From NCBI GenBank assembly GCA_000092065.1, contig CP000584.1: a stretch of 64,000 nucleotides of DNA. One strand, given 5' to 3'. The notes beneath the pieces were generated by a model. That model did not search any database. It worked only from the letters and a program-made list of their open reading frames with translations, and was not told the origin of the DNA. The position numbers were made by a program, and so were the translations under genes. This stretch comes from Ostreococcus lucimarinus. Lineage: Eukaryota. This document shows positions 1 through 60,090 of this stretch, piece after piece; the stretch's first letter is position 1, and the number at the start of each line of letters is the position of its first letter.

Positions 1-789
1 AACCAAATTTTCTCCTAAATCCATCGGCACCGTCGGTTGCTCGGCTTCTCGAGCCTTCTTCACCGCCTCCTCGCGAGACAGCGGCTTGAAGTGTTCGGGT
101 TTCTTCGCCGCGGCGGACGATTTGAGAATTTTTTGCGGCGCGAGCCCGAGCGCGCGCACCACCTCCAATCTCGATCGATACCTCTCCTTATCGGGCGACC
201 AGTACAGCGCATCGTACGTTCCCGCGCTCGCGCCTTGTGTCCGCATCGTCGCCGTGCACGTCCAATCATCCGAAAGCTGTCCTCCGCACTTGGCCACGTA
301 CTCTCGCAACGCCTCCAGCAACGCCGGCGTCGGATCATCCGCGCTCCGATCCGCCCGAATCGCCCCTCCTGTCGTCACCTTCACCCGTTTCGCCGCCTGT
401 TCATCCCCACCGCTCGCCTCCGCGTTCGCCCCAACCACTTTCCCATCGACGATTTTCGCCCCGGCGCCGACGCTCGCGCTTCGTCCTCGCGTCGACGCGT
501 GAAAGTCATCGTCATCGTCCTCCTCCTCGTCTTCGTCCTCCTCGTCGATCGAGCTCGCGTCGTAATCCGCATCCTCATCATCCTCGACCCCGTCGTCGCT
601 CGGTCTCACCGCGCGTCCGTTCGTCGTCGTCGCGTCTCTCGTCGTCTCGGTCTCGACAGGTGTCTTTTGATCATCATCGCCCGTTCGCGTCGCCGCCGTC
701 GCGTTTTCCCTCGTCTCTTCGCCCTCGCGCGCGTCTTCCCGCGACGCGATCGTCCTTTTGTGCATCTTGAACACTCCCGCGGCGTCCAT
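1..789 (-). CDS. Methyl-CpG-binding domain (MBD) protein, N-terminal part; the CDS runs off the window at position 1
   Basis: Hand translation of the minus strand from the ATG at 789..787 (a second ATG at 764..762) gives an open frame to position 1. The ORF track omits it because the frame has no stop codon inside the window. The N-terminus is rich in Asp/Glu. Then comes ...LSDDWTCTATMRTQGASAGTYDALYWSPDKERYRSRLEVVRALGL..., which fits the MBD consensus W.R..R.SG.SAG..D.Y..SP.G...RS..E...Y (compare MeCP2 [36 protein letters not shown]). Confidence 0.5.
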   Translation of the reverse strand, partial: MDAAGVFKMHKRTIASREDAREGEETRENATAATRTGDDDQKTPVETETTRDATTTNGRAVRPSDDGVEDDEDADYDASSIDEEDEDEEEDDDDDFHASTRGRSASVGAGAKIVDGKVVGANAEASGGDEQAAKRVKVTTGGAIRADRSADDPTPALLEALREYVAKCGGQLSDDWTCTATMRTQGASAGTYDALYWSPDKERYRSRLEVVRALGLAPQKILKSSAAAKKPEHFKPLSREEAVKKAREAEQPTVPMDLGENLV

Positions 790-1020
790 GGCGACCCGGG
801 GCGCGCGCCGGCGCGTCGTCAAGTCCGGCTGGTTTGAAATGCGAACCTCGAGCGGGGCGCGTGTCGACGGAATTCGCGCGCGCGCGGCGACACACTGGCG
901 CGCGCGCGCCCGATCGGCGCGGTCTCGCGAGACGACGAGGCGAGGAAACGGAACGACCGCGCGCGCGCGCGAAGCGGAGGGGCGAACGCGCGCGCATCGG
1001 CGCGCGAACGGGCGATTTCG

Positions 1021-4000
1021 ATGAGCGAAAAGATGAAATCGGCGTTTCAAGCGGCCAAGTCAAAGGTTTCGAGCGCGGTCGAGACGACCAAGGCGCGGTC
1101 GAAGGCGCGACAGACGTCCGCGGGGGGGAGCATGGATGTCGATGCGTCGTTAAGGGGGGTCGGGGACGACGGAGACGCGCGCGAGGCGCTGCGCGAGGCG
1201 AGGGAACACGCGAATTCGTTGGAGCGAGCGCAGGCGGCGCTGAACGGGGAGATGCGGCGGATGGCGAATGAATACGAAAGGGTGCGCGGTGAGCTCGATG
1301 CGGTGAGCCGGGAGAAAGAAGAGGTTCGACAACGAGCGTCGGCGGCGTGGACGGAGATGACGGCGGAGATCGAGGCGTTGAAGGCGGAGCTCGAGCGGGC
1401 TCGAGGCGGGAAAGCGGAGGGCGACGCGGGAGAAGACGCCATAGATGAACTCAAGCAAAAGGCGCACTTGGAGGCGCGAGCGATTAAAAAGGTTCTTATT
1501 GAAGACAGGGAAAAGTTTGCCGCGACGGAGGCTGAGTTGAGGGGGAGAATTAAAGAATTAGAGGACGCGCTCGCGAATGTCGAGGAAGGCGCCAAGTACA
1601 CAAGCGAGGCGAACGCGGAGCTATCGTCCAACGTGCAGACGTTGGAGTCGCAAGTTTCTTCGCTTCGGATAGAAGTGAACGAGAAAAACGCCACGGTAGA
1701 GCGTTTGGAGCGAGCGAGCGCGGCGCCGTCTGAAGAAGTTGCGGCGGCACGTGCGGAGACTCGACAGACGCAAGCCCAAGCCGAAAGACTCGAGTCTTTG
1801 CTCGAGGTCACGAAGTCGGAACTCGAAAAGACGACGTCTTCGCTCGAACAAGAAGAAGCGAACGGCGCTAAAACACGCGAAGCCGTGGTGTCGCTAGAGT
1901 CTCAGTTAGCGGCGGTAACAGCAGAGCTGCAAGCAAGTACAGACGCTCAAGCGTCCACAAGCTCTGCAACAGACGAACTCAAGGCAGAATTAGCCGCCGC
2001 ACGAGTCGAGTACGGCCAAGTACGGTCCGAGCTCGAGGCGAAATCGAAGGCGCTGGAGCAGGCGCAGGCTTCAAGCGTGGCGACAAGTGAGCTCGAGGCG
2101 GAGCTGGCTTCCACGCGCTCTGAGCTCGAGGCGAAATCGAAGGCGCTGGAGCAGGCGCAGGCTTCAAGCGTGGCGACAAGTGAGCTCGAGGCGGAGCTGG
2201 CTTCCACGCACTCTGAGCTCGAGGCGAAATCGAAGGCGCTGGAGCAGGCGCAGGCTTCAAGCGTGGCGACAAGTGAGCTCGAGGCGGAGCTGGCTTCCAC
2301 GCGCTCTGAGCTCGAGGCGAAATCGAAGGCGCTGGAGCAGGCGCAGGCTTCAAGCGTGGCGACAAGTGAGCTCGAGGCGGAGCTGGCTTCCACGCGCTCT
2401 GAGCTCGAGGCGAAATCGAAGGCGCTGGAGCAGGCGCAAGCTTCAAGCGTGGCGACAAGTGAGCTCGAGGCGGAGCTGGCTTCCACGCGCTCTGAGCTCG
2501 AGGCGAAATCGAAGGCGCTGGAGCAGGCGCAGGCTTCAAGCGTGGCGACAAGTGAGCTCGAGGTGGAGCTGGCTTCCACGCACTCTGAGCTCGAGGCGAA
2601 ATCGAAGGCGCTGGAGCAGGCGCAGGCTTCAAGCGTGGCGACAAGTGAGCTCGAGGCGGAGCTGGCTTCCACGCGCTCTGAACTCGAGGCGAAATCGAAG
2701 GCGCTGGAGCAGGCGCAGGCTTCAAGCGTGGCGACAAGTGAGCTCGAGGCGGAGCTGGCTTCCACGCGCTCTGAGCTCGAGGCGAAATCGAAGGCGCTGG
2801 AGCAGGCGCAGGCTTCAAGCGTGGCGACAAGTGAGCTCGAGGCGGAGCTGGCTTCCACGCACTCTGAGCTCGAGGCGAAATCGAAGGCGCTGGAGCAGGC
2901 GCAGGCTTCAAGCGTGGCGACAAGTGAGCTCGAGGCGGAGCTGGCTTCCACGCACTCTGAGCTCGAGGCGAAATCGAAGGCGCTGGAGCAGGCGCAGGCT
3001 TCAAGCGTGGCGACAAGTGAGCTCGAGGCGGAGCTGGCTTCCACGCGCTCTGAGCTCGAGGCGAAATCGAAGGCGCTGGAGCAGGCGCAGGCTTCAAGCG
3101 TGGCGACAAGCGAGCTCGAGGCGGAGCTGGCTTCCACGCACTCTGAGCTCGAGGCGAAATCGAAGGCGCTGGAGCAGGCGCAGGCTTCAAGCGTGGCGAC
3201 AAGCGAGCTCGAGGCGGAGCTGGCTTCCACGCGCTCTGAGCTCGAGGCGAAATCGAAGGCGCTGGAGCAGGCGCAGGCTTCAAGCGTGGCGACAAGCGAG
3301 CTCGAGGCGGAGCTGGCTTCCACGCGCTCTGAGCTCGAGGCGAAATCGAAGGCGCTGGAGCAGGCGCAGGCTTCAAGCGTGGCGACAAGTGAGCTCGAGG
3401 CGGAGCTGGCTTCCACGCGCTCTGAGCTCGAGGCGAAATCGAAGGCGCTGGAGCAGGCGCAGGCTTCAAGCGTGGCGACAAGCGAGCTCGAGGCGGAGCT
3501 GGCTTCCACGCGCTCTGAGCTCGAGGCGAAATCGAAGGCGCTGGAGCAGGCGCAGGCTTTGTCAAGTGAGACGCAGCAACGGTTGGAAACCGCTCGCAAC
3601 ACATCGCAGTCGGAAGTATCCGTGCTGAAGCAAGAGCTTGTAGAAAAGAATCATGCTCTTGCGGAAGCGCAAGCGTCGAGTGTGAACGTGGAAGAAATTC
3701 AAGCCACGACTCAGTTGTTGGAATCTCAGCTTGTTGCAGTGAAAGCAGAGCTTGAAGCAAAGAGCGCAGAGCTCGACGCACAGAAGGAGGCACTCATGCG
3801 CGCCGAAGCGACGAAGAGTTCAAGCGCAGAAGAAGTCGAAACAATGAAAACGACGTTAATGTCTCAACTTGCGATGGTGCAAGACGAACTCGCGTCAAAG
3901 ACCGAGGCGCTCAAGAAGGCAGAGTCTGCGTCGAACGCTGCAGCACAAGAAAAAGCAGCCGCGAAGGAATTGTTCGATTCACAATTGAGCTCTGCGCGAG

Positions 4001-5058
4001 CGGAAATTGAATCAAAGACGAGTGAGGCACAAAGTGCATCGGACGCAAGGGACGCCCTGCAGTCCAAGGTGAGCGCCCTTCAAGGCGAGCTTCAGGCGAA
4101 ACATGAAGCGCTCGAGCTTGCGCAAGCCTCAACGGGATCAGCGACGGACGAACTCCAATCGAGCCTCGATGCGGCTCGTCAACGAGCCCTTGGTTTTGAA
4201 ACCGATCTCGAAGCGCTTCGTGCAGAGCTCGCGGCTCTTCGTGCAGAGCTCGCGGATAAAACGCAAGCGCTCACCGCGTTTGAGCAGAATGCCTCCGCCG
4301 CGAGGACGGAGCTACAAGAGAAACTCGAGAAGAGTCTTGAGCACGCTCGAGCAGAGAATCAACAAGTAACGGAAAAACACGAGGAAGTGCAGGCGACGTT
4401 ATTGACGGATGTGGAATCGCTCAAGGCGAATCTAGAGTCGGCAGAGACTCGTAATGCCGTCATGGAAGAGGAGCTTCGCTTGACAAACGAAGCGCTGAAT
4501 CGTTCATCCGTCGAAGCCTCGGGCATTGAAAGTGTTCGCACACAGCTCGCTGAGGTCAGCGAGCGTTTCAAAGAGTCCGAAATGGAAAGATCCACTCTCG
4601 AGCAAAGTCTGCGCGTCGCGAACGAGCGCCTGACCTCGTTGGAAGAACGACTCAAAGTTGCTGAGGAGAACGATGCCTCCGCCGCCGAGGCGCTCCGTGA
4701 AGCCAATGAACAAGCCGCGAAGGCGAAGGATAACGTCGCGTCCATCGCCTCCGTGAGCGCCACCCAATTCGCTCAAGAGCGTCAAATGATGAAAAATGCC
4801 CTGAGCGAGCTCCAAACCGAGCGTGACATCCTCGTCAAGATGCTCAAAACTTTTCACGCGCACGGCGTCGTGCACTCGACGAGCGAGACAGCGTCTCATC
4901 GCGACGCCAGCGAGAGCGTCTTCGGGGACGGCCCTTCGGAGTTCGCCCGGCGTTTCACCGATTCCGCGTCATTAGCTGGCGTGTTCACCCCGAGAAAACG
5001 CGCCCCGTACGTTGACCTCGACCGGCAGTCCCCCAACTCACCGCGCTCGCCCAACTGA
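1021..5058 (+). CDS. Large coiled-coil protein rich in Ala/Glu/Leu (1345 aa) with an internal 31-aa tandem repeat array; tropomyosin/SMC-tail-like filament-forming protein
   Basis: One uninterrupted ORF from the ATG at 1021 to the TGA at 5056-5058. The composition gives a heptad-like E/A/L/K/Q pattern throughout. The central third is about 16.5 near-identical 31-aa units (SELEAKSKALEQAQASSVATSELEAELASTR). No enzymatic motif was recognised. Confidence 0.6.
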   Translation: MSEKMKSAFQAAKSKVSSAVETTKARSKARQTSAGGSMDVDASLRGVGDDGDAREALREAREHANSLERAQAALNGEMRRMANEYERVRGELDAVSREKEEVRQRASAAWTEMTAEIEALKAELERARGGKAEGDAGEDAIDELKQKAHLEARAIKKVLIEDREKFAATEAELRGRIKELEDALANVEEGAKYTSEANAELSSNVQTLESQVSSLRIEVNEKNATVERLERASAAPSEEVAAARAETRQTQAQAERLESLLEVTKSELEKTTSSLEQEEANGAKTREAVVSLESQLAAVTAELQASTDAQASTSSATDELKAELAAARVEYGQVRSELEAKSKALEQAQASSVATSELEAELASTRSELEAKSKALEQAQASSVATSELEAELASTHSELEAKSKALEQAQASSVATSELEAELASTRSELEAKSKALEQAQASSVATSELEAELASTRSELEAKSKALEQAQASSVATSELEAELASTRSELEAKSKALEQAQASSVATSELEVELASTHSELEAKSKALEQAQASSVATSELEAELASTRSELEAKSKALEQAQASSVATSELEAELASTRSELEAKSKALEQAQASSVATSELEAELASTHSELEAKSKALEQAQASSVATSELEAELASTHSELEAKSKALEQAQASSVATSELEAELASTRSELEAKSKALEQAQASSVATSELEAELASTHSELEAKSKALEQAQASSVATSELEAELASTRSELEAKSKALEQAQASSVATSELEAELASTRSELEAKSKALEQAQASSVATSELEAELASTRSELEAKSKALEQAQASSVATSELEAELASTRSELEAKSKALEQAQALSSETQQRLETARNTSQSEVSVLKQELVEKNHALAEAQASSVNVEEIQATTQLLESQLVAVKAELEAKSAELDAQKEALMRAEATKSSSAEEVETMKTTLMSQLAMVQDELASKTEALKKAESASNAAAQEKAAAKELFDSQLSSARAEIESKTSEAQSASDARDALQSKVSALQGELQAKHEALELAQASTGSATDELQSSLDAARQRALGFETDLEALRAELAALRAELADKTQALTAFEQNASAARTELQEKLEKSLEHARAENQQVTEKHEEVQATLLTDVESLKANLESAETRNAVMEEELRLTNEALNRSSVEASGIESVRTQLAEVSERFKESEMERSTLEQSLRVANERLTSLEERLKVAEENDASAAEALREANEQAAKAKDNVASIASVSATQFAQERQMMKNALSELQTERDILVKMLKTFHAHGVVHSTSETASHRDASESVFGDGPSEFARRFTDSASLAGVFTPRKRAPYVDLDRQSPNSPRSPN
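2029..3559. repeat. Tandem array of a 93-bp unit, about 16.5 copies, more than 97 percent identical, in frame within the coiled-coil CDS
   Basis: The unit gagctcgaggcgaaatcgaaggcgctggagcaggcgcaggcttcaagcgtggcgacaagtgagctcgaggcggagctggcttccacgcgctct is repeated head to tail. The only variants are cgc/cac (Arg/His), one gcg/gtg, one gag/gaa and agt/agc synonymous changes. The array generates long spurious ORFs in three other frames (1947..3602 -, 1979..3793 -, 2087..3628 +). Confidence 0.9.
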
Positions 5059-6587: not shown

Positions 6588-9353
6588 TTAACGCGGGGAA
6601 TATCCACCCGACGTTCTCACTTGCTCTGGTGAGGCGTTTGCCAAAATCGGACTCACTCCATACGGATCTCCATACGGATCAGCCATTTCTGGGGTGTCGT
6701 TGAAAGAGTTTTCTTTATCGACAAACAATGGTGACACCATGTCGACGTTTGGCGTGCAGCCACCGTCGTACTCTCCAGTCGTATTCAGTGCGGCGACGGC
6801 ATTGAGGGCTTGACGAGCTGCTTCTAAATCATCTTGACTTCCGGCAACATCCATATCACCTGAAGCAGTTCGATCCAACTCCATGGAATCACGCCATTGT
6901 ACGCTCGTACGCAACATGGACTCCTCACCGATTGCCTCCGTCACCATGGGGTTGATTTCATCATCCTCGTTCAAATCAGCTGAGTCATCACCCATGTCGA
7001 TGTACACTTCCACTGGCTTGGGACTTCCCTTGATCATCACCGGTGTCGTTCTCGGACCTAGCGACGAGGTATTGGATACGTTACTGTCCGTCTTTCGGTG
7101 CCCAAACTCAGGCGTGTCCACTGCTTCGGCGCCCGTGTTCAGGTCGACCGATAATTTATTTTCGTTCACCGGCTCCAAAGGTGAGCGGTAAAACGGCGCA
7201 GGAGATCGTGCGACGTTATTACTAGCGCCAGGACTTTTAATCGGCGTCTTCTTTAGCCCGCTGAACAGTTGCCTTCCACCAATCGCGTTGTTGATGGCGC
7301 TGACGCTGGGGTAGCCCAAGGGCGGACCCTCGGGAACAAAAGGATTCCACAACGCGGCGGCGCTCATCCAGTTCACGGCGCTGATCATCCACAAGAAGTT
7401 GACCGCCACAGCGATGCTCAAATAGCTGTAATAGTGCTCCTCGGCGACGAGCGAGACAACGATGAGCATGATACCGGCCTCTATGGCGAGAACGCCGATG
7501 ATGACAGCGAATGGAATCAAAGCGTCTTCTCGTGTGAGCCCCCAAAAGGATTTCCTCGGGCACGACGTGGAACGCCACCAAAACTTGCCCTTGCGGTCAG
7601 TAGAGTTAGAGACGTACGAGGACGGCGGCCAGATCAAGCAAGCAACCAATAGCTTGACGTCATCGAGGACGGGCAACTTCCAAGTCCGTCCCCAAATTTT
7701 AAACTCGCGCAATTCGCAAAACTTTTCCCAAACCTTTCGGTCGTGAGTGCCCGGGAGACGGATCTTCAACAAACCGAGGATAACGCACGCGTGGAAGAAA
7801 AATACAAGCATGACATACGGACCTGTGACCGCGGCAAAAAGGCCAATTGTGCAGATTCGTGCCGCGAGCTCAAAGAAGCGGTAGCACGCCTTGGCCATCA
7901 TTTCAGACAGGTGTGCCTTGTGCATCTTCCAGTACTCTCTCCACGAGTACGCGGGCGGTTTTTCGTGCAAGTCTAACGAAACAAAACACAAGGTACCAGA
8001 GGTGATCGAACCCGCGACGGCCAGGAACAGGAGCATGTCGAATCCCTCCCGACCCGGGCAGACGCTGGTGGGAGACGAGCACGAGATTCCAATGTACGCC
8101 TGGAGCGTCGCCATGGGGAGCGTTAAGAAGATGGTATCCACGAGTTGCATCCCACGAAGATCCATTTCAGCCTTTCTCGCTCGCACATCATTCGTTCGGA
8201 GCGCACGCCAAGCGGCAAAGGCGGTGCCGAGCTGCAACATCGCGCACGCGGCACCAAAGCGCCTGACGACGACTTTGAAATCGTACTTGCTGAATCCAAA
8301 GACTTTTTGGTCCTTGCCCACACTTCCTTTCGCCGGTTTCTTGGGCATGGGATAGTGAAGCACCCAGTATCCAGTAATACACGCCGCCGAGAAGACGAAA
8401 AACGTCAAAACCATGCTGAACCACAACCAAGATCCCGCTCGAGCGAAGCGATGAAGTTCGCGCACCAACTGCGTCTTGGAGTAAAAGTCGAGCAAGATTC
8501 CAACTACGAGCATCAAGCGCTGCACGATGTTCAACGACGGACCCAGGCACTCGATACGCTCAAGAACTTGACGAGAGATTGGAATCGGGGTCATGGGAAC
8601 GACGTTCGCCGGGAGAGACATGCGCATCGCTGCCCGCTTCTTTGCCGCCGCGCTCGGACGAGACGGCGTTGCGCCGGCATCAATGGAATTTCCGAGCACT
8701 TTATTCTCGAACGGTGCCGTCATGGGCGAACCAATGGACGCCCACATGCCACCAGGCTTCATATTACTTCTCGGCTCGACGTTACTCCGACGGAACCGAT
8801 CCACCGGTGACATGAGCGGCGTTTGACTTCCCGCCGCTTCCTGTTGACTGGCTTCCTCGTCCTCATCCGCGCCCTCGGGGGTGCCGCCGAGGTTGACCTC
8901 GTCCTCGCATTCGTCTCCATCATCTCGTGCCGACGTCATCTTACGCTCCGGGGTCTCAAGTCCGTCCATATCCTCCTCCGCGCCCTCCTCAAGCTTCGCC
9001 GCCGCCTCCTCGATGGCGGCGACGCGCGCGCACACTCGCACCGGCGGTGTCTGCGTAGCCGGTCGTCCCATCCCTGGACTCTCCGCCATCGACCCCCACG
9101 CATCATCACCATCCTCTGCATCCTCAAATCCATCATCGTTCGCCGTCACGGGCGATTCCTCACCTCCGCTCGTCCTCGGCGTCCCCTCCACGCGCACCTC
9201 GCAGTCCTCGTCGTCGTCCTCGCGCGCGTCCTCGCTCGCCATCGACGACGTCACCGCGCGTCGTCCGTCGCTCGGCGTCGTCACCGGCGACGATTCTGCG
9301 TCGCACGCGCGCTTCCGAGCGCTCGCGCGCGTCGCCCGTCGCGTCGTCGGCAT
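6588..9353 (-). CDS. Polytopic membrane protein (at least 8 predicted TM helices) with an acidic N-terminal domain and a Ser/Pro-rich C-terminal tail; family not recognised
   Basis: A 950-codon ORF. The ORF-track start at 9440 is GTG; the first ATG (MPTTRRATRAS) is at 9353..9351. The central part holds hydrophobic helices (LMLVVGILLDFY, WLWFSMVLTFFVFSAACITGYWVL, YVMLVFFFHACVILGLL, IPFAVIIGVLAIEAGIMLIVVSLV, VAVNFLWMISAVNWMSAAALW). Local AT content is higher there, as expected for real TM coding. Confidence 0.5.
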   Translation of the reverse strand: MPTTRRATRASARKRACDAESSPVTTPSDGRRAVTSSMASEDAREDDDEDCEVRVEGTPRTSGGEESPVTANDDGFEDAEDGDDAWGSMAESPGMGRPATQTPPVRVCARVAAIEEAAAKLEEGAEEDMDGLETPERKMTSARDDGDECEDEVNLGGTPEGADEDEEASQQEAAGSQTPLMSPVDRFRRSNVEPRSNMKPGGMWASIGSPMTAPFENKVLGNSIDAGATPSRPSAAAKKRAAMRMSLPANVVPMTPIPISRQVLERIECLGPSLNIVQRLMLVVGILLDFYSKTQLVRELHRFARAGSWLWFSMVLTFFVFSAACITGYWVLHYPMPKKPAKGSVGKDQKVFGFSKYDFKVVVRRFGAACAMLQLGTAFAAWRALRTNDVRARKAEMDLRGMQLVDTIFLTLPMATLQAYIGISCSSPTSVCPGREGFDMLLFLAVAGSITSGTLCFVSLDLHEKPPAYSWREYWKMHKAHLSEMMAKACYRFFELAARICTIGLFAAVTGPYVMLVFFFHACVILGLLKIRLPGTHDRKVWEKFCELREFKIWGRTWKLPVLDDVKLLVACLIWPPSSYVSNSTDRKGKFWWRSTSCPRKSFWGLTREDALIPFAVIIGVLAIEAGIMLIVVSLVAEEHYYSYLSIAVAVNFLWMISAVNWMSAAALWNPFVPEGPPLGYPSVSAINNAIGGRQLFSGLKKTPIKSPGASNNVARSPAPFYRSPLEPVNENKLSVDLNTGAEAVDTPEFGHRKTDSNVSNTSSLGPRTTPVMIKGSPKPVEVYIDMGDDSADLNEDDEINPMVTEAIGEESMLRTSVQWRDSMELDRTASGDMDVAGSQDDLEAARQALNAVAALNTTGEYDGGCTPNVDMVSPLFVDKENSFNDTPEMADPYGDPYGVSPILANASPEQVRTSGGYSPR

Positions 9354-18621: not shown

Positions 18622-19458
18622 ATGCTCGCGCTGTCTCCCACCGCCCTCGCCGTCGTCAGCGACACCGACGAACGTCGTCGTCGCGCATCGAGCGCGCGAA
18701 CCGCCGACGACGCCGCGTCGACGTCTGCGCTCGAGCGCGCGCTCGCGGACGCGCGAACGCGCGCGCGCGAGTCGAGCGTGAAAGTGTGTGAGCTGGAGGA
18801 ATCGTGTGCGGCGCTCGCCATCGCAGCGGGACGCGCGGAAACGCGCGCAAAGGCGCTGGGGGAACGATTAGCCGACGCGGAACGCGGCGCGTCGTCGACG
18901 TTGGAGCGAGACGCGCTGGAGACACGCGTCAAGGCGCTGGAGACGGCAAATGAACGCCTGAGAGTGGGGTTGCGAGAGAAGAGCGAGCGCGTGGACGCGC
19001 TGGAGGCAGAGGTGCGGGAGGGGAGACGCGCGGAGGATTCGGCGGGCGACGCGGCGACGACGACGGAGACGGAGACGGCGGCTCGGAGGGAACGAGAGAT
19101 CGTGCGCTTGCGTGGAGAGTTGAGTCGACAAGCACAGGTGATTGCAGATGCGTATAGGGATGAGGTACAGCGATTGCAGCGAGAGTTGGCGATGAGCCAA
19201 GGGCGATGTGAACGCGCGGAGAAGGAGAACGCGCAGTTGAAGAAGAAACTAGCCACCCGCGTGGGCGAACGTAGGACGTACGAGTCACCGTACGCGTACG
19301 CCAAGTACGAGGGAAAGATCGATACAATCAGGCATGCATCATCGCCATCGCGAAGTCCATTGGCTCGACGATGCGAAAACGTGTTCGAACGATTGGCGAC
19401 GCCGAAAAGAATCTCGGAACGGTCGTCTCCCGCAATTTCGCCGAAGAGTTTTCGATGA
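18622..19458 (+). CDS. Coiled-coil protein (278 aa), function unknown
   Basis: ATG at 18622. Heptad-like sequence (ALETRVKALETANERLRVGLREKSERVDALEAEVREG...LQRELAMSQGRCERAEKENAQLKKKLA) with a Ser/Pro-rich C-terminus. Its minus-strand overlap ORFs look like low-complexity artefacts. Confidence 0.4.
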   Translation: MLALSPTALAVVSDTDERRRRASSARTADDAASTSALERALADARTRARESSVKVCELEESCAALAIAAGRAETRAKALGERLADAERGASSTLERDALETRVKALETANERLRVGLREKSERVDALEAEVREGRRAEDSAGDAATTTETETAARREREIVRLRGELSRQAQVIADAYRDEVQRLQRELAMSQGRCERAEKENAQLKKKLATRVGERRTYESPYAYAKYEGKIDTIRHASSPSRSPLARRCENVFERLATPKRISERSSPAISPKSFR

Positions 19459-38850: not shown

Positions 38851-38922
38851 GAATGAGTGTTCATTACAACCCACTATGAAGAAATTGAATGAGTGTTCGT
38901 TACAACCCACTATGAAGAAATT
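38851..38922. repeat. Perfect-but-one 36-bp tandem duplication (2 copies) covering the last 7 codons, the stop and the TGTAA signal of the minus-strand M20 peptidase gene
   Basis: gaatgagtgttcattacaacccactatgaagaaatt / gaatgagtgttcgttacaacccactatgaagaaatt. Copy 2 (38887-38922) contains the real stop at 38900-38902. Copy 1 lies downstream in the 3' UTR between the convergent GCP4 and M20 genes. Confidence 0.8.
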
Positions 38923-40231
38923 CGAGCGCGTACATCGCGTGCAAAGCGACGCCAGACGTCAAGACGCTTTCATCCAGAATGTACTTCGTGCTATGCAAAG
39001 GATGCGTCGCACCGGCGGTTTCGTTGTACGCTCCGAGCCACATCATGGCAGATGGGTAAGTTTCCCCGAAAAACGAGAAATCTTCCGCGGGCATGACTGG
39101 CACGACGTCGCGCGTGCTCTCGCTTCCGAACAGTTGCGCGGCGACGTTCATCGCCAACCCTGCGGCTCGCGGGTCGTTCACCGTCGGTGGATACGGAATT
39201 CGCTTCACGCCATTGTGCTCAGGTTCAAAAGATGTCGCTGCCGTGCAACCGTGCGCGCTGGCGATGGCAGAAGCCATGTCGGCAATTTTCTGTTGAAATT
39301 TCGCAAAAGTCTTCGGATTGAGCGCTCGCAACGTGCCTTGCAAACTCGCCGTGTCTGGCATGATGTTGCTCGCCGTTCCCGAGTTGAACACGGTGACGCT
39401 GATCACCACGCTATCTAACGGATCCGTCAATCGACTCACGAGCGTCTGCAACGCGGTGACGATCGCGCTACCCGCGACGATGACGTCCACGTTGTTGTGC
39501 GGCACCGCCGCGTGTCCGCCGCGTCCGACGACGACGACGTCGAAGCTCCCCGCTCCAGCCATGATCGTTCCACCGCGCGTGCCCATCGTCCCACTCGGCA
39601 TTTCAGGATACGGCCAATTATGTAATCCAAACACGCTTTCAATCGGCGGTTTCAAATCCAGCATTCCCGTCGTCCCGTCGCTCGGCCGCAACATTTCCTT
39701 CGCCCCCGCCCCGCCTTCCTCCGCCGGTTGAAATATGAACCGCACCACTCCCGGCACGGACGTCTCATCCGCGTCGTACCTCGCCTTTATCACCTTCGCC
39801 GCGCCGAGTAACATCGCCACGTGTCCATCGTGTCCACACGCGTGCATTTTTCCATCGTTCTCGCTCGCGTACGCCAACCCGGTGTCCTCGCGCAGCGGCA
39901 GCGCGTCCATATCCGCTCTCAACCCCACGCTTCGTTCGCCTCGTCCGACGCGCGCGACGATCCCCGTGGACGTCACTCGGTCGTATTCGATCCCGTGCGC
40001 GTCGAGCTCGCGCGCGATGACGTCCGCGGTGGCGCGTTCGGTCCACATGAGTTCGGGATTTTTGTGGATTTCTCGTCGCAGGTCGACGACGTAATCGTGC
40101 GTCGCGCGCGATTGCGACAGGATTTCGCGCGCATCGACGTTTGATGACGACGCGGCGATATCGCGCAGCGTCGTCGCGTCCAGGGCGAGCGCCGCGGGGA
40201 CGTGGGCGAGGAAGAACAGCGCTCTGAGCAT
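38900..40231 (-). CDS. Peptidase M20D-family amidohydrolase (ILR1/IAA-amino-acid hydrolase-like) with a signal peptide
   Basis: ATG at 40231 (MLRALFFLAHVPAALALD). Motifs: MHACGHDGHVAMLLGAAKVIKAR, VRFIFQPAEEGGAGAKEM, LHNWPYPEMPSGTMGTRGGTIMAGAGSFDVVVVGRGGHAAVPHNNVD. The stop TAA at 38900-38902 lies inside a minus-strand TGTAA. Confidence 0.85.
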   Translation of the reverse strand: MLRALFFLAHVPAALALDATTLRDIAASSSNVDAREILSQSRATHDYVVDLRREIHKNPELMWTERATADVIARELDAHGIEYDRVTSTGIVARVGRGERSVGLRADMDALPLREDTGLAYASENDGKMHACGHDGHVAMLLGAAKVIKARYDADETSVPGVVRFIFQPAEEGGAGAKEMLRPSDGTTGMLDLKPPIESVFGLHNWPYPEMPSGTMGTRGGTIMAGAGSFDVVVVGRGGHAAVPHNNVDVIVAGSAIVTALQTLVSRLTDPLDSVVISVTVFNSGTASNIMPDTASLQGTLRALNPKTFAKFQQKIADMASAIASAHGCTAATSFEPEHNGVKRIPYPPTVNDPRAAGLAMNVAAQLFGSESTRDVVPVMPAEDFSFFGETYPSAMMWLGAYNETAGATHPLHSTKYILDESVLTSGVALHAMYALEFLHSGL

Positions 40232-51962: not shown

Positions 51963-54900
51963 ATGCGCGCGCCGCCCGAAATCCCGCCCAAGGGACAAAA
52001 AACAATCAGCAGTTTCTTCGCGCCGAATCCGCGGCCGTGCGCGGCGTCGTCGCGACGCGCGTCGAGCGAAACCGCGACGCGCGATGCGGCATCGCGAACG
52101 AACGATGACGACGAAAACGCGCCGCCGGCGGCGAAGCGCGCGAAGACTCGCGACGCGGACGATCGCGAGGATGACGTTGAGCTCACCGACGACGCGCGCG
52201 CGGACGAGGGACGACGGCGCGAGGACGCGGACGCGGACGAGGACGACGCGCGGGCGACGCTCGAGCGACTGAAACCGTCGTCGCCGACGACGCGCGCGAA
52301 GTTTATTCAAAAGCTCTCGCTCGATCGACGACGACGAGATTTAGAGGTCGATGCGGATGGAAAGACGAAGGATGGCGCGGGCGCGTCGGAGACGGGGACG
52401 AAGATGACGCCGTTGGAACAGAGCGTGAAGACGTTCAAGGCGAAATATCCGGGGACGATGCTGATGATCGAAGTCGGGTACAAGTATCACTTTTACGGCG
52501 ATGACGCGCGGGATGCGAGCAAGGTTTTGGGAATATTCGCGTATCAGTCGAGGAACTATCTCACGGCGAGCGTGCCCGTGGTGCGGTTGAACGTGTACGT
52601 GCGACGGTTGGTCAAGGCGGGGTATCGAGTGGGGGTGGTGAAACAGACGGAGACGGCGGCGTTGAAGGCGAGCGGGGAGACGGGGAATAAATCGGGGCTG
52701 TTTGAACGGAAATTGGTTGGATTGTACACGAAAGCGACGTTAGACGCGGGAGCGGCGTTGTCGGACGCGGGCGACGACGGGGAAAAGTCGAGCATGGCGT
52801 CGGGGGTGTTGTCGAATCATTTGTTGTGCGTCGCCGAGGATCGCGTCGCGGGCGGGGCGTCGACGTCGGCGTCGACGCGCGTGGGATTGGCGGCGATTGA
52901 AACAAGCACCGGGGACGTACTGAGTGGAGAGTTCATGGACACCATGCAACGACCTGGGTTGGAGTCGCGGTTGTTGTGCATTTCACCCGCGGAGATCGTT
53001 CTCGTGGAACCAATTAGCGAACCGACGGCGCGTTTAATCAAGGCGATGTACGGTTCAGGCGCGAACGCGGCGCGCGTGGAGCGCGTGACGCGAGACGAAC
53101 TCACTGGCGTCACGCTTACCGGTACCAAGGCGGAGGAGGCGACACCCTTGGTGCACACCGCACTCTGCGCGGGCGCCAAGTATCTGAGAGAATTCGGACA
53201 AGCTGATATTCTTCATCTCGACGCCGCGTTTCGCCCGCTCGAGGGCGCGGACGAAATGAAACTCTCGCCGAATGTTTTGCGTCAACTCGAGGTTTTGACG
53301 TCTTCCGCGGGAACGTACAAGGGAAGCTTACTTTGGTTGATGAATCACACCGTCACACCCATGGGTGGTCGCTTGCTGCGTCACTGGGTGAGTCATCCAC
53401 TGCGTTCAAAGTCCGCCATCGAAGGCCGACTGGACGCCGTCGACGCGCTGCGCGAGTTGACGTCGTTTGAGGAAGGATCGATGATGGACCACGACAAAGT
53501 GAGTCACAACACGTTCAACGGATTGAAGATTCAACTAAAACAGCTCCCAGATCTCGAACGAAGTCTCGCGCGCGTGTTTCACGGCACGGCAACGCCCGGT
53601 GAGTTCGTCGGGGCTTTGACGTCGCTCGCAAAATTCAGCGAGTCGTGCGCAGCGATGCGCGCGAGCGTCTCTGGGGAGATCAAGTCGACGTTGCTGGAAG
53701 CGCAAATCGAAGCCGTCACCGATCCTCTTCTTCACGCGTTAGCAGACCAGTTTTTGAACGCGCTGAATCTGGAGATTGCGTGCGTGGACAAGCCTTCGAA
53801 GACGAAGATTGGACTCTTCAAGGACGACGCGGAAAGCTTTCCGGATTTGCACGCCGCCACTGCGGCGGTGGAGGAGGCGAAGCGCGCGATGGACGATTTA
53901 CTCCCGGAACTGCGCCGTAAGCTCGGCATGCCGCGTCTTGGTTACACCACCGTAGGCGGTGTTGGCGGCGGCGAGTGGCTCATCGAAGTCCCCATGGATC
54001 GCTCGTGTCCGACGACGTGGATCAAGGTGAGTTCGAACAAGAGCAAAAAGGTTGTACGCTACCACCCGCCGGAAGTCACGGAAGCGGCGGCGGCGTTAGA
54101 ATGCGCGAATGAACGACACATGTTTGCCGCCGATGCGGCATGGAAAGAATTTCTGTCGTCGTTTCGAGACAACTACGCCGCTTTTCGATCGGCGACGTCG
54201 GCTGTGGCGACGTTGGACGCGTTGCACGCGTTGGCGATTCTGTCAAGAAACGAAGGATACGTCCGACCAGAATTGCTCGACGATTCCGCGCCACCATCTC
54301 TGCACGTTGTCGATGGTAGGCATCCAGTGCTCGACGCGCACCTTTTGGATGACTTTGTGCCAAACAGTATCGACCTCCACGGCGACCGTACGCGCGCTCT
54401 CGTGATCACCGGACCAAACATGGGTGGGAAGAGTTGCTACATTCGTCAAGTGGCGTTGTTGAGCGTGATGGCGCAGGTCGGGAGTTTTGTTCCAGCAAAA
54501 CAGGCCCGCCTCACAGTGCTCGATGCAATCTACACGCGCATGGGAGCGAGCGACAATCTCGCCATGGGTTCATCGACTTTCCTCGAGGAAATGTCCGAGG
54601 CGTCAAACATTTTAGAAATGTGCACGCCGAGATCGCTCGTCATCATGGACGAACTCGGTCGAGGGACGTCGACGCACGACGGCGTCGCCATCGCGGCCGC
54701 CACGCTCGAACACCTCGTTCGAGATGCAAAGTGTTTCACGCTATTCGTGACGCACTACCCATCGGTCGCGCGCGACGTGCAAGCCAAGTACCCGACGCAC
54801 TGCGCGTCGTGCTTCACGTCGTACGTCGAACTTGAAGGTTCGTCGGAGGAAATGCCGCGAATTCAATTCCTGTACAAGCTCACCCCGGGCGTCGCCCATC

Positions 54901-55154
54901 GCTCGTTCGGTTTAAACGTGGCTCGCATGGCGTGCTTACCGCCCGCGGTGATTCAATCCGCCGGCGTCAAGGCTTCCGAATTAGAAATCACCACCGCTCG
55001 TCGAGCGCTCGCTCGTCGAGCGTTCAACCGCGAAACCGCCGACGCGTGCGCCTCGGCGACGTCCTCCGTCCTCGCCGCCATCGCCTCGGGCGATCACGCC
55101 ACCATGATCGCCGCGCGTGCGGCCGCCACCGCCGTCCCCGACGCTCGCGTCTGA
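51963..55154 (+). CDS. MutS homolog (MSH3/MSH6-type mismatch-repair ATPase) with an N-terminal PIP box
   Basis: ATG at 51963. PIP box QKTISSFF at aa 12-19. MutS domain I: TPLEQSVKTFKAKYPGTMLMIEVGYKYHFYGDDARDASKVLGI...VKAGYRVGVVKQTETAALKA. ABC ATPase domain V: ITGPNMGGKSCYIRQVALLSVMAQVGSFVPA...STFLEEMSEASNIL...VIMDELGRGTSTHDGVAIAAATLEHL...TLFVTHY. Confidence 0.9.
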   Translation: MRAPPEIPPKGQKTISSFFAPNPRPCAASSRRASSETATRDAASRTNDDDENAPPAAKRAKTRDADDREDDVELTDDARADEGRRREDADADEDDARATLERLKPSSPTTRAKFIQKLSLDRRRRDLEVDADGKTKDGAGASETGTKMTPLEQSVKTFKAKYPGTMLMIEVGYKYHFYGDDARDASKVLGIFAYQSRNYLTASVPVVRLNVYVRRLVKAGYRVGVVKQTETAALKASGETGNKSGLFERKLVGLYTKATLDAGAALSDAGDDGEKSSMASGVLSNHLLCVAEDRVAGGASTSASTRVGLAAIETSTGDVLSGEFMDTMQRPGLESRLLCISPAEIVLVEPISEPTARLIKAMYGSGANAARVERVTRDELTGVTLTGTKAEEATPLVHTALCAGAKYLREFGQADILHLDAAFRPLEGADEMKLSPNVLRQLEVLTSSAGTYKGSLLWLMNHTVTPMGGRLLRHWVSHPLRSKSAIEGRLDAVDALRELTSFEEGSMMDHDKVSHNTFNGLKIQLKQLPDLERSLARVFHGTATPGEFVGALTSLAKFSESCAAMRASVSGEIKSTLLEAQIEAVTDPLLHALADQFLNALNLEIACVDKPSKTKIGLFKDDAESFPDLHAATAAVEEAKRAMDDLLPELRRKLGMPRLGYTTVGGVGGGEWLIEVPMDRSCPTTWIKVSSNKSKKVVRYHPPEVTEAAAALECANERHMFAADAAWKEFLSSFRDNYAAFRSATSAVATLDALHALAILSRNEGYVRPELLDDSAPPSLHVVDGRHPVLDAHLLDDFVPNSIDLHGDRTRALVITGPNMGGKSCYIRQVALLSVMAQVGSFVPAKQARLTVLDAIYTRMGASDNLAMGSSTFLEEMSEASNILEMCTPRSLVIMDELGRGTSTHDGVAIAAATLEHLVRDAKCFTLFVTHYPSVARDVQAKYPTHCASCFTSYVELEGSSEEMPRIQFLYKLTPGVAHRSFGLNVARMACLPPAVIQSAGVKASELEITTARRALARRAFNRETADACASATSSVLAAIASGDHATMIAARAAATAVPDARV

Positions 55155-55292: not shown

Positions 55293-56297
55293 ATGGGCGC
55301 CGACGACGACGCGCGCGCCGCCGCCGTCGCCGGCGACGTCCGCGCGTTCCTCGCGCTCGTCGAGCGCGGCGCCGACCCGACGACTCGGGACGAAAACGGC
55401 GCGCACTGCCTGCACCACGCGGCGGCGGCGAACTGCGCGGCGATCGTCGATCATCTGCTCAGCGCGGGCGTGCGATGGAACGACGTCGATGACGACGGTG
55501 ACTGCGCGGGACAGTACGCGAGCGGACACGGACACGCGGAACTGGCGCGAGCGATGATGGACCACGCGACGGCGAGCGAGGTGCGGGACGGCGAGGCGTC
55601 GATGTCGGCGACGAAGGGCGCGAGCCGAAGGAACGAAGAGAGCGAGAAATATTTAGCGACAAAGGTGAGGTATAGCGGTGATGATAAATTGTTGGACGAG
55701 CGCGGAGACGCGGTGATGATGAGCTGGGAGGCGCCGTTGATGGAGGCGCACGCGGACGCGCTGTGCGAGACGAACGGCGACGTTATGAACGTCGGTTTCG
55801 GCTTAGGGATCATCGATGGATGCATTCAGGCTCGAGAGCCGAGGAGTCACACGATCGTGGAGGCGCATCCGGACGTGCGGGCGCACATGACGCGCGCGGG
55901 ATGGGATTCGAAGGCGGGCGTGCGCGTGGAGTTTGGACGGTGGCAAGACGTGCTGCCGAGACTCGTGGAGGAAGGTCGAAAGTTTGACGCGATTTATTTC
56001 GACACGTACGGGGAAGAGTACGACGACATGCGTCGGTTTCACGCCTTTTTGCCCAAACTTTTGCGCGAGGGCGGGCTGTACAGCTACTTCAACGGCATGT
56101 GTCCCGACAACATTTTCTTTCACATGGTGTACAATCGCGTCGCCGAGGTCGAGCTCGGAGCTTTGGGTCTCAAGGTGACGTTTGAGATGAAATCCATCGA
56201 CACCGCGGATGCGAAGATTTGGGAGGGCGTCACCCGTCGATATTGGTGGGGCGACAAGTACTTCTTACCCAAGTGCGTGTTCCGAGGCAAAGTTTAG
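55293..56297 (+). CDS. RMT2-type protein arginine N-methyltransferase (ankyrin repeats plus a guanidinoacetate-N-methyltransferase-like domain)
   Basis: ATG at 55293. Ankyrin-like: DENGAHCLHHAAAANCAAIVDHLLSAGVRWNDVDDDGDCAGQYASGHGHAELARAM. GAMT/RMT2-like: MMSWEAPLMEAHADALCETNGDVMNVGFGLGIIDG...AIYFDTYGEEYDDMRRFHAFLPKLLREGGLYSYFNG. Confidence 0.7.
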   Translation: MGADDDARAAAVAGDVRAFLALVERGADPTTRDENGAHCLHHAAAANCAAIVDHLLSAGVRWNDVDDDGDCAGQYASGHGHAELARAMMDHATASEVRDGEASMSATKGASRRNEESEKYLATKVRYSGDDKLLDERGDAVMMSWEAPLMEAHADALCETNGDVMNVGFGLGIIDGCIQAREPRSHTIVEAHPDVRAHMTRAGWDSKAGVRVEFGRWQDVLPRLVEEGRKFDAIYFDTYGEEYDDMRRFHAFLPKLLREGGLYSYFNGMCPDNIFFHMVYNRVAEVELGALGLKVTFEMKSIDTADAKIWEGVTRRYWWGDKYFLPKCVFRGKV

Positions 56298-58719: not shown

Positions 58720-60090
58720 TCATCTCTTTTTACCCGCCATCACGAGCGCGGTCGTGGAGATGATGCAAATCGTCGCCAAGACTTTTTGGGCGTCGTCGAC
58801 GAGAGGATCGCCGGCGTGTCTGTTGACGCCGAGCGACTCGCGAACGTTTTCGAGATTCCAGGCGTACAAAAAGTAGCCGAAACACAACAACCACAGGACG
58901 ATTCTGGTCGCCATGGGAATGGAGTCGTCCTCTATTTGCTCCTTGCGCATGCGTTCGGTTTCCTTGGCGATGATTTCGTCGCACGCCTCCTCGAGAGCCT
59001 CGATGCGCGCCATGGTCTCCTCGCCGTTCGGATCGCTCTTCGGGTCCACCTTGTGCACGAGTTCGTTGGCGAAGTGCTTGAAGCCGCTCGCTAACTCGAG
59101 CATGTTGTTGCACTTGAGCATGATGCGCGCGCTCAGGCCTCGGCGAATCTTGACCACGCCCTTGAAGACGTTTTCGTTGCCGTAGCACTCGGCCAACGTC
59201 GCGATGGCCATCACCTGAGGAATGGCGCAGAACCGGAAGATGGAGATCTCCTTGACTCGGCTCATGTACTTTAAGCAATCCAACGAGTGCGACAGGGCGT
59301 TGGTGATCAATTCGTTCATGCACTGCACCGCCTTTTCGCGGTTTTCCTCGTGTTGCAAATCGTCGAGCTCTTCGGCGTACTTGCTCCACACGCTCCTAGG
59401 CCAGAACATTCGCGGCGCGGGAAGCTCCTGAATGTCTTCCAAGTAATCGCGAATGATGTTCGTCTTCTGTAAAAACAATCCCATGGCGTTCGAGAGCTTT
59501 TCCTCGCCCACAAACTCCGCGCTCTCCATCTTCGACACCCCCCACAAGTTGGACAGACCGATGCCGACCAAGCCCGCGACGTAGTGGCAATACTCGTCGA
59601 AATCCGCCATGTCCATCACCTCCTTCTCGATAAACTTCGCCATCCCGTGCCCCATTCGCTTGGTGATGTCCGCGATCACCGTTCGATACTCCTTCTTCAA
59701 TCCCAAGAACACCGACGTCACGCGCGGATAATTCTTCATCAAATCCTTGTAGTGCTTCTCCCCGCAATCCGCGCTATAATTCGCGTCGTAAATGTACTCG
59801 TGAAACGCGAGCAGATCCGGCACCTTCCTCTCGATCGGTATGCTCATGTCGTCCTCCACCGTGTCCAGCGCTCGAAGCACGAGATAAAACACGCACACCG
59901 CGTCTCGCAGCTCCGCGTCCAGCCGCTGAATCACGATCGCGAACGATCTCGACACCTTATTCAGCACGTCGTAGCAGTACGCCAGATCCGGATCCTTCGG
60001 CAATCTCTTCGCCGCGTTCGCCATCATCTTCACCCGCACCAGCGGCGCGACGTCCCCCGGGTGCGACAGCACCGCCCGAAGCGCCCCCAT
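58720..60090 (-). CDS. SQS: Squalene synthase (farnesyl-diphosphate farnesyltransferase)
   Basis: ATG at 60090 ([11 protein letters not shown]). [62 protein letters not shown] is near-identical to the human FDFT1 block [44 protein letters not shown]. A C-terminal TM anchor is present. Confidence 0.9.
   Translation of the reverse strand: [456 protein letters not shown]

Follow-up and report, generated by a model that had tools for sequence, protein, structure and literature searches.

A probable MBD9-type chromatin protein gene at the edge of a stretch of Ostreococcus lucimarinus DNA

The minus strand of positions 1–789 in a 64,000-nucleotide stretch of DNA from the alga Ostreococcus lucimarinus (contig CP000584.1; the whole stretch is referred to below as the window) very probably holds the 5′ end of a gene for an MBD9-type chromatin protein. 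The reverse complement of these positions is a run of 263 codons without a stop, the translation of which is identical at 261 of 263 residues to P0123, a protein of 1,474 residues; it represents the N-terminal 18% of a ~1,470-residue polypeptide. The first-pass annotation, made from the DNA letters and a list of open reading frames (ORFs), had described a gene for a methyl-CpG-binding domain (MBD) protein at this place. The domain is real, but its host appears to be a large MBD9-type protein and not a small stand-alone reader. This algal counterpart of plant MBD9 is an added member of an already known family, and no description of an algal MBD9 was found in the literature. The features mapped within the gene are listed here by their position in the window.

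1..789, minus strand: 5′ coding part of the probable MBD9-type gene, codons 1–263 of ~1,474 (open frame, identity to P0123)
787..789, minus strand: likely start codon, Met1, with a second in-frame ATG at 762–764 (conservation of the N-terminal motif)
361..789, minus strand: poorly conserved N-terminal region, residues 1–143, including an acidic tract (translation, ortholog alignment)
286..330, minus strand: conserved helix preceding the MBD, residues 154–168, PALLEALREYVAKCG (AlphaFold model residues 10–24, predicted local distance difference test (pLDDT) score ~80)
133..279, minus strand: MBD core, residues 171–219 (Pfam PF01429, profile search of the PDB, fold search)
46..75, minus strand: predicted helix in the linker between the MBD and the FYR domains, residues 239–248, SREEAVKKAR (AlphaFold helix 95–104 at low confidence, alignment A2)
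1..30, minus strand: first ten residues of FYRN, 254–263, the remainder lying outside the window (Pfam FYRN match in P0123)

Of the domains of this protein, the window thus contains the MBD and the beginning of FYRN alone.

Domain architecture and family assignment

The first-pass annotation had seen a good match to the MBD fold in this frame, and several independent comparisons agree with it. The Pfam MBD model (PF01429) aligns with residues 171–219 of the 263-residue window protein at 20.9 bits (E=2.8e-4), just below the gathering score of 21, and with the isolated segment 145–263 at 23.1 bits, above that cutoff; in full-length P0123 the same residues score 18.1 bits. All 13 aligned family modules match the model. 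PDB matches obtained with the single 263-residue sequence are nearly all MBDs (E ~3e-3), and a profile built from the 13 homologous MBD modules (alignment A2) retrieves MBD chains only, from AtMBD6 at E=2.8e-13 down to MBD4 at 2e-6. The AlphaFold model consists of a helix, three strands (model residues 33–38, 48–53 and 59–61) and a C-terminal helix (64–69), with a core pLDDT of ~80. In a Foldseek search of the PDB, 35 of the 35 top matches are MBDs with probabilities of 0.85–1.0, although the TM-scores are modest (0.24–0.63). By sequence, profile and predicted fold, the window protein carries a genuine MBD.

The conserved helix in front of the MBD recurs in the homologs from Myrmecia and Nannochloris and in plant MBD9, and the linker helix at residues 239–248 is conserved out to the Myrmecia homolog. 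Among eight Ostreococcus-clade orthologs the mean identity is 85% over the MBD core, with 32 of 49 positions invariant, and 86% over the PHD finger. It is 76% over residues 144–170 and falls to 37% over residues 1–143, where 14 of 143 positions are invariant. A conservation equal to that of the PHD finger and far above that of the N-terminus indicates that the MBD is functionally constrained.

Two other MBD proteins, both of the green lineage, share the helix preceding the MBD. P0008 (NCBI, 311 residues) is an MBD4-like protein with a canonical MBD and an HhH-GPD glycosylase domain, while P0109 from Nannochloris (1,536 residues) contains two MBDs and a PHD finger. An MBD4-like glycosylase was considered for the window gene and rejected, as Pfam finds no HhH-GPD domain in P0123.

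The order of modules in P0123 is an acidic N-terminus, the helix with the MBD, FYRN, FYRC, a lysine/glutamate-rich coiled coil, a DDT-like segment, a bromodomain-like segment, a PHD finger, a WHIM1-like segment, WSD and a conserved C-terminal motif. Four of these domains beyond the MBD exceed their Pfam cutoffs.

P0123 residues 254–290: FYRN, 27.3 bits (cutoff 24)
P0123 residues 312–381: FYRC, 22.1 bits (cutoff 21)
P0123 residues 928–972: PHD (PF00628), 41.1 bits (cutoff 24)
P0123 residues 1202–1274: WSD, 32.3 bits (cutoff 25.4)

The DDT-like segment lies at about residues 585–650 and includes the sequence SELGDIMEIWMFLDRFKRELFG. Eleven of 12 aligned family segments match the Pfam DDT model (best E=2.4e-6), and the segment aligns with the DDT domain of P0202, the MBD9 of Aristolochia (XP_068636750.1). 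The bromodomain-like segment lies at about residues 840–900, of which 842–889 align by BLASTP with the bromodomain region of P0202, itself below threshold at 18.2 bits (cutoff 21.7).

An exhaustive hidden Markov model (HMM) search of 1.84 billion representative sequences with a profile running from DDT to the C-terminus found 89 proteins at E <= 1e-30. Two matches from among the best non-algal ones were looked up, and both carry the annotation MBD9, namely the Aristolochia protein (E=4.9e-40) and a cluster to which the MBD9 of Dioscorea belongs (E=1.6e-43). P0202 is arranged as PHD, MBD, FYRN, FYRC, DDT, bromodomain, PHD, WHIM1 and WSD, and BLASTP aligns P0123 with it in a collinear series that starts at the MBD and reaches the C-terminus, as follows.

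MBD: E 8e-5
FYRN: E 2e-7
DDT: E 0.11 (weak)
Bromodomain-PHD-WHIM1: E 9e-25
WSD: E 0.012
C-terminal motif: E 1e-9

The algal protein and land-plant MBD9 (At3g01460 of Arabidopsis and P0202) share the MBD, FYRN, FYRC, PHD, WSD and C-terminal motif in the same order, with the DDT-like, bromodomain-like and WHIM1-like segments of the algal protein at the corresponding places, and the domain set given for AtMBD9 in a review is the set found here (PMC10451976). It is this agreement in domain set and order, together with the collinear alignment, that assigns the algal gene to the MBD9 type. Unlike the plant proteins, the algal one has a long lysine/glutamate-rich coiled coil between FYRC and DDT, and its DDT-like and bromodomain-like segments have diverged so far that they do not reach the Pfam cutoffs.

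Several observations weigh against the MBD9-type assignment. Only 263 codons lie in the window, and the rest of the protein is known from near-identical metagenomic sequences, not from the chromosome of strain CCE9901. In the O. lucimarinus-type segment, Pfam DDT reaches only 15.1 bits (cutoff 22); the AlphaFold model of the DDT region has a pLDDT of 61.9 and no Foldseek match in the PDB, and Pfam finds no bromodomain in P0123. P0123 has one PHD finger where plant MBD9 has two, and the algal protein is ~700 residues shorter. Moreover, any association with ISWI or SWR1 would be transferred from Arabidopsis over a very deep divergence. Two further results belong beside these: a profile search of PDB sequences with the DDT region returned nothing relevant, and no PHD precedes the MBD in P0123 (Pfam PF00628).

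A different parentage, in which the protein is a BAZ2A/B (TIP5)-type subunit of a NoRC-like complex and no MBD9 homolog, is considered most unlikely. BAZ2A and BAZ2B do share the logic of an MBD-like module fused to DDT, WHIM/WSD, PHD and bromodomain, with ISWI as the expected partner (PMC8600091), and a PDB search with the C-terminal profile retrieves their PHD fingers, although its results are dominated by PHD fingers in general. However, the algal protein possesses FYRN and FYRC, a feature of MBD9 (PMC10451976) that is missing from BAZ2, and its PHD follows the bromodomain-like region, an order shared with P0202, whereas in BAZ2 the PHD comes before a C-terminal bromodomain. In TAM, the MBD-like module of BAZ2, each arginine finger is replaced by Lys and an additional BAZ-specific part is present, while the algal MBD has the arginines. 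Finally, the two named proteins checked from among the best non-algal matches to the C-terminal profile are both plant MBD9.

P0180, a metagenomic Ala/Gly-rich protein of 1,598 residues, belongs to the same family and keeps the Tyr of the MBD discussed below, but FYRN and FYRC are apparently absent. Judged on composition alone it is probably Micromonas-like, and its apparent lack of FYRN/FYRC would mean that the N-terminal module varies within Mamiellophyceae.

Reading frame, coding strand and extent of the gene

The translated minus frame opens with MDAAGVFKMHKRT and contains exactly the peptide DWTCTATMRTQGASAGTYDALYWSPDKERYRSRLEVVRAL quoted in the first-pass annotation, which had also rightly reported that the frame is open from the ATG at 789 to position 1. 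The acidic N-terminus noted there corresponds to a tract at residues 64–97 (window 499–600), DDGVEDDEDADYDASSIDEEDEDEEEDDDDDF. Both starts that had been suggested exist as in-frame ATGs, at 787–789 (Met1) and at 762–764 (Met9), and both are used by gene callers, yielding 1,474 residues in P0123 and 1,466 in P0099 and P0126. Upstream of position 789 the frame remains open to at least position 1020, with no in-frame ATG as far as that position. P0100, P0102 and P0103 closely keep an N-terminal motif, M-[DNE]-A-[SA]-G-[VI]-F-[RK]-M, and P0106 does so more loosely. Since the Met1 peptide is conserved in several orthologs, the ATG at 787–789 is favored and is probably the start codon.

The minus frame is missing from the ORF list because it touches the end of the window; that list leaves out every ORF cut by an end of the source sequence, as the first-pass annotation had supposed. 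The list instead shows three plus-strand ORFs of 266, 177 and 138 residues that overlap the gene. In DNA of 63% GC, with the antisense strand likewise open for 266, 177 and 138 codons, an open frame alone is weak evidence, and the signal that goes beyond chance is homology and conservation, not openness.

A rival reading is that the real gene is a plus-strand ORF over 37–837, the minus frame being open merely through GC-rich composition. Compared with L001, a relative with 91% identity, the minus frame has 12, 9 and 31 mismatches at codon positions 1, 2 and 3, and in a gap-free stretch of 586 nucleotides it is free of stops, with 17 codon changes synonymous and 10 non-synonymous. The corresponding ratios are 3:24 for the frame of the plus-strand ORF at 37..837 and 4:25 for that at 237..770. 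The frame of the ORF at 86..502 gives 19:10, a value in favor of plus-strand coding were it not that its wobble positions coincide with those of the minus frame, so that the count itself cannot separate the two; the 86..502 frame is excluded by its stops and its lack of homology. None of the three plus-strand ORFs has a Pfam match, and their translations are low-complexity sequences rich in Arg, Ser and Pro, while the minus frame has domain homology and a continuation to 1,474 residues in relatives. The chance that the gene lies on the plus strand is accordingly negligible, and the earlier description of these ORFs as artefacts of the antisense strand holds.

Beyond the window, the minus-strand gene can be followed in related sequences. 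Contig L002, with 99.4% DNA identity to the window over 469 nucleotides, continues the ORF in frame, and the relatives P0001 and P0002 run past the window edge into FYRN/FYRC. Searched with a full-length protein rebuilt from L001, many contigs contain uninterrupted orthologous ORFs of 1,466–1,496 residues. A word-indexed search with the 263 residues, or with an MBD-FYR profile, recovers only a few fragments and misses these full-length orthologs.

In some contigs the gene is broken by single-base insertions or deletions at different sites (L001 at ~7200 and ~8357, L003 at ~8256–8292 and elsewhere). The difference in sites between the contigs marks them as assembly errors, and because of these frameshifts one gene is called as 3–5 separate proteins in the long-read metagenome contigs. 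Introns, considered as another source of the broken frame in L001 and L003, were rejected: the contigs align throughout at 84% identity, the insertions and deletions are 35 nucleotides apart, and one consensus frame runs through both. P0002, P0099 and P0123 read through. The gene is, with the same good confidence as the MBD9-type assignment as a whole, a single exon of ~4.4 kb with a product of ~1,474 residues.

No NCBI, UniRef or EukProt accession was found on the Mamiellales ortholog clusters (P0099, P0100, P0104, P0105, P0180 and P0182). The protein collection holds exact copies of six complete ORFs of the window, three of which are O. lucimarinus CCE9901 proteins (XP_001417485.1, XP_001417226.1 and XP_001417488.1), and this confirms the Mamiellophyceae host that the first-pass annotation had considered. 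Public annotation may lack the gene; alternatively, the collection itself may have gaps.

Methyl-CpG recognition and proposed function

The key residues by which an MBD recognizes methyl-CpG number four: the pair of arginine fingers, the Asp bracing finger 1, and a Tyr that belongs to the methyl-sensing network. Recognition also needs a full-length L1 loop and a Glu, which stabilizes arginine finger 2 (PMC8811898, PMC8600091). The corresponding positions of the algal protein, as placed by alignment, are listed below.

241..243, minus strand: Arg183, codon CGG, arginine finger 1 (MBD2 R166, AtMBD6 R92)
211..213, minus strand: Asp193, codon GAT, the Asp bracing finger 1 (MeCP2 D121, MBD2 D176, AtMBD6 D102)
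205..207, minus strand: Leu195, codon CTG, aligned with the methyl-contacting Tyr (MeCP2 Y123, MBD2 Y178, AtMBD6 Y104)
175..177, minus strand: Arg205, codon CGA, arginine finger 2 (MBD2 R188, AtMBD6 R115)
163–165: Glu209, the stabilizing Glu (AtMBD6 E119)

Arg183 is invariant in all 13 aligned MBD modules. The distance of 10 residues between Arg183 and Asp193 equals that between R166 and D176 of MBD2, pointing to a full-length L1 loop, and the spacing of the recognition residues is canonical since the alignments to MBD2 and AtMBD6 are gapless there. The best sequence and fold matches, MBD2, MBD1, MeCP2 and AtMBD6, have the fingers, Asp and Glu at identical spacing and a full-length L1. The algal protein differs from them by Leu195 in place of Tyr, by the extra preceding helix, and by a 1,474-residue host that resembles a remodeler adaptor and not a small repressor. 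With both arginine fingers, the Asp, the Glu and the full L1 loop retained, CpG-directed DNA binding by the algal MBD is likely.

The Tyr position is occupied by Leu, Ile or Thr in the Ostreococcus-clade orthologs and their closest relatives (Thr, read by eye, in the Bathycoccus-like P0182). More distant homologs of the green lineage keep the Tyr, namely P0108 from Myrmecia, P0008, P0194, P0180 and P0177, the last two of which look Micromonas-like on composition only. MBD3 and AtMBD5 likewise have no Tyr hydroxyl at this position, although theirs is a Phe where the algal residue is Leu, and MBD3 additionally carries K30H. The K30H and Y34F changes of MBD3 jointly lower methyl-CpG binding (PMC7055227); the window protein has Thr191 at the place of Lys at position 30 (K30) of MBD2/MBD3. 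A lower affinity is expected of AtMBD5 on account of its Phe, but AtMBD5 still localizes to methylated chromocentres (PMC8811898), and loss of the Tyr alone therefore does not exclude binding to methylated DNA. Sequence alone cannot decide the methyl selectivity of the algal MBD. Methyl-CpG reading by the MBD9-type protein is plausible, and binding selective for 5-methylated CpG (5mCpG) is considered rather doubtful.

The MBD9-type protein might instead carry a degenerate, methylation-blind MBD that binds DNA, RNA or proteins in a general way, like the domains of plant MBD9 and MBD3 and the TAM of BAZ2A, and the chance of this falls only a little short of even. Leu195 and Thr191, at the positions of Tyr and of Lys30 in MBD2/MBD3 (PMC7055227), are in line with such a domain. 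The MBD of plant MBD9 is considered incapable of binding methylated DNA (PMC6659704, PMC10451976), lacks the key residues, and belongs to a protein whose binding sites are hypomethylated (PMC6659704), and the BAZ2A TAM binds DNA irrespective of methylation (PMC8600091). Nevertheless, both fingers, the Asp and the Glu of the algal domain are intact at canonical spacing, unlike those of P0202 and BAZ2A (PMC8600091). The arginine fingers, the Asp and the full L1 loop have all been lost from the plant MBD (P0202 reads YKSCTNG...KFES; PMC6659704). The BAZ2A TAM ranks only 44–49 among the Foldseek matches, with a probability of 0.44 or less, within the Ostreococcus clade the conservation of the MBD equals that of the PHD finger, and a hydrophobic Leu could still pack against a methyl group.

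At the other extreme stands the role implied by the first-pass annotation, that of a dedicated MBD protein reading dense DNMT5-dependent linker CpG methylation. CpG methylation in O. lucimarinus is ~22% (10.1101/2025.04.21.649811). Such methylation in algae occurs only in linkers, according to Huff and Zilberman 2014 as cited in PMC5728721. A genuine MBD that is under strong purifying selection and retains R183, R205, D193, E209 and the full L1 loop would suit such a role. However, the ORF extends ~1,200 codons past the MBD into FYR, PHD and WSD, the methyl-sensing Tyr is replaced by Leu at a position where Tyr-to-Phe changes are tied to weaker methyl-CpG binding (PMC7055227, PMC8811898), and methylated DNA is considered not to be a ligand of the MBD in the plant member of the family (PMC6659704). 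A dedicated reader is highly improbable.

For the MBD9-type protein, a role as a multivalent adaptor can be proposed by homology with Arabidopsis MBD9, which associates with SWR1 and ISWI and copurifies with subunits of the former and strongly with the latter (PMC6659704, PMC6695207, PMC10451976). By this analogy, the MBD would contact DNA, the PHD and bromodomain-like modules would contact histone tails, and the DDT/WHIM/WSD modules would engage an ISWI-type remodeler. The whole protein might thus help position remodeling and/or SWR1-dependent deposition of H2A.Z.

The nucleosomes of Mamiellophyceae are very well positioned, again following Huff and Zilberman 2014 as cited in PMC5728721. A methylation-sensitive MBD on a remodeler adaptor is attractive in a genome with ~22% linker-confined CpG methylation, given that the arginine fingers are kept. 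In that case the MBD9-type adaptor, through a CpG-directed and methylation-sensitive MBD, would couple DNMT5-methylated linkers to ISWI-type nucleosome spacing and/or to SWR1 deposition of H2A.Z. This coupling is put forward as a speculative and, on present evidence, unlikely scenario, one step below selective 5mCpG binding itself. A limited literature search found no reader that links linker methylation to nucleosome positioning. In the algal protein, an MBD with intact arginine fingers shares a polypeptide with modules that dock ISWI remodelers in plants and animals, and the gene is hence a concrete candidate for a link between linker methylation and nucleosome spacing; O. tauri is genetically tractable.

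If true, the coupling would be a direct protein tie between linker-only methylation and exceptionally regular nucleosome arrays, and the ancestral MBD9 would have been a true methyl-DNA reader that lost this function in land plants. The retention in chlorophyte homologs of canonical MBD residues lost from angiosperm MBD9 bears on the evolution of the family. Should the MBD prove methylation-blind, the result would be an ordinary ortholog assignment and a better description of the gene at the window edge.

Neighboring genes and repeats

The MBD9-type gene stands head-to-head with a plus-strand gene for a coiled-coil repeat protein of 1,345 residues, an arrangement that is also found in L001 and is thus syntenic.

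790..1020, no strand assigned: divergent intergenic region of 231 bp between the MBD9-type gene and the coiled-coil gene at 1021–5058 on the plus strand (gene positions), presumed to be a shared promoter region
18622–19455: gene for an RNase H-like YqgF-family nuclease
38903–40231: gene for an M20 peptidase/IAA-amino acid hydrolase
51963–55151: MSH3 gene
55293–56294: gene for the arginine methyltransferase RMT2
58723–60090: squalene synthase gene

The five genes between 18622 and 60090, from the YqgF-family nuclease to squalene synthase, are ordinary nuclear genes and lie densely packed. The 64-kb window yielded no tRNA genes.

Inside the coiled-coil gene, a tandem array at 2029–3559 consists of 16.5 copies of a 93-bp unit with 98% matches and encodes 31-residue repeats (SELEAKSKALEQAQASSVATSELEAELASTR). 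The ORFs of 551, 604 and 513 residues that overlap the array at window positions 1947–3793, read in a different frame or from the opposite strand, are periodic artefacts of this repeat and not genes. The syntenic gene of L001 has 4.4 repeat copies (L001 positions 4454–4866), and the difference from 16.5 indicates that the copy number varies strongly between close lineages.

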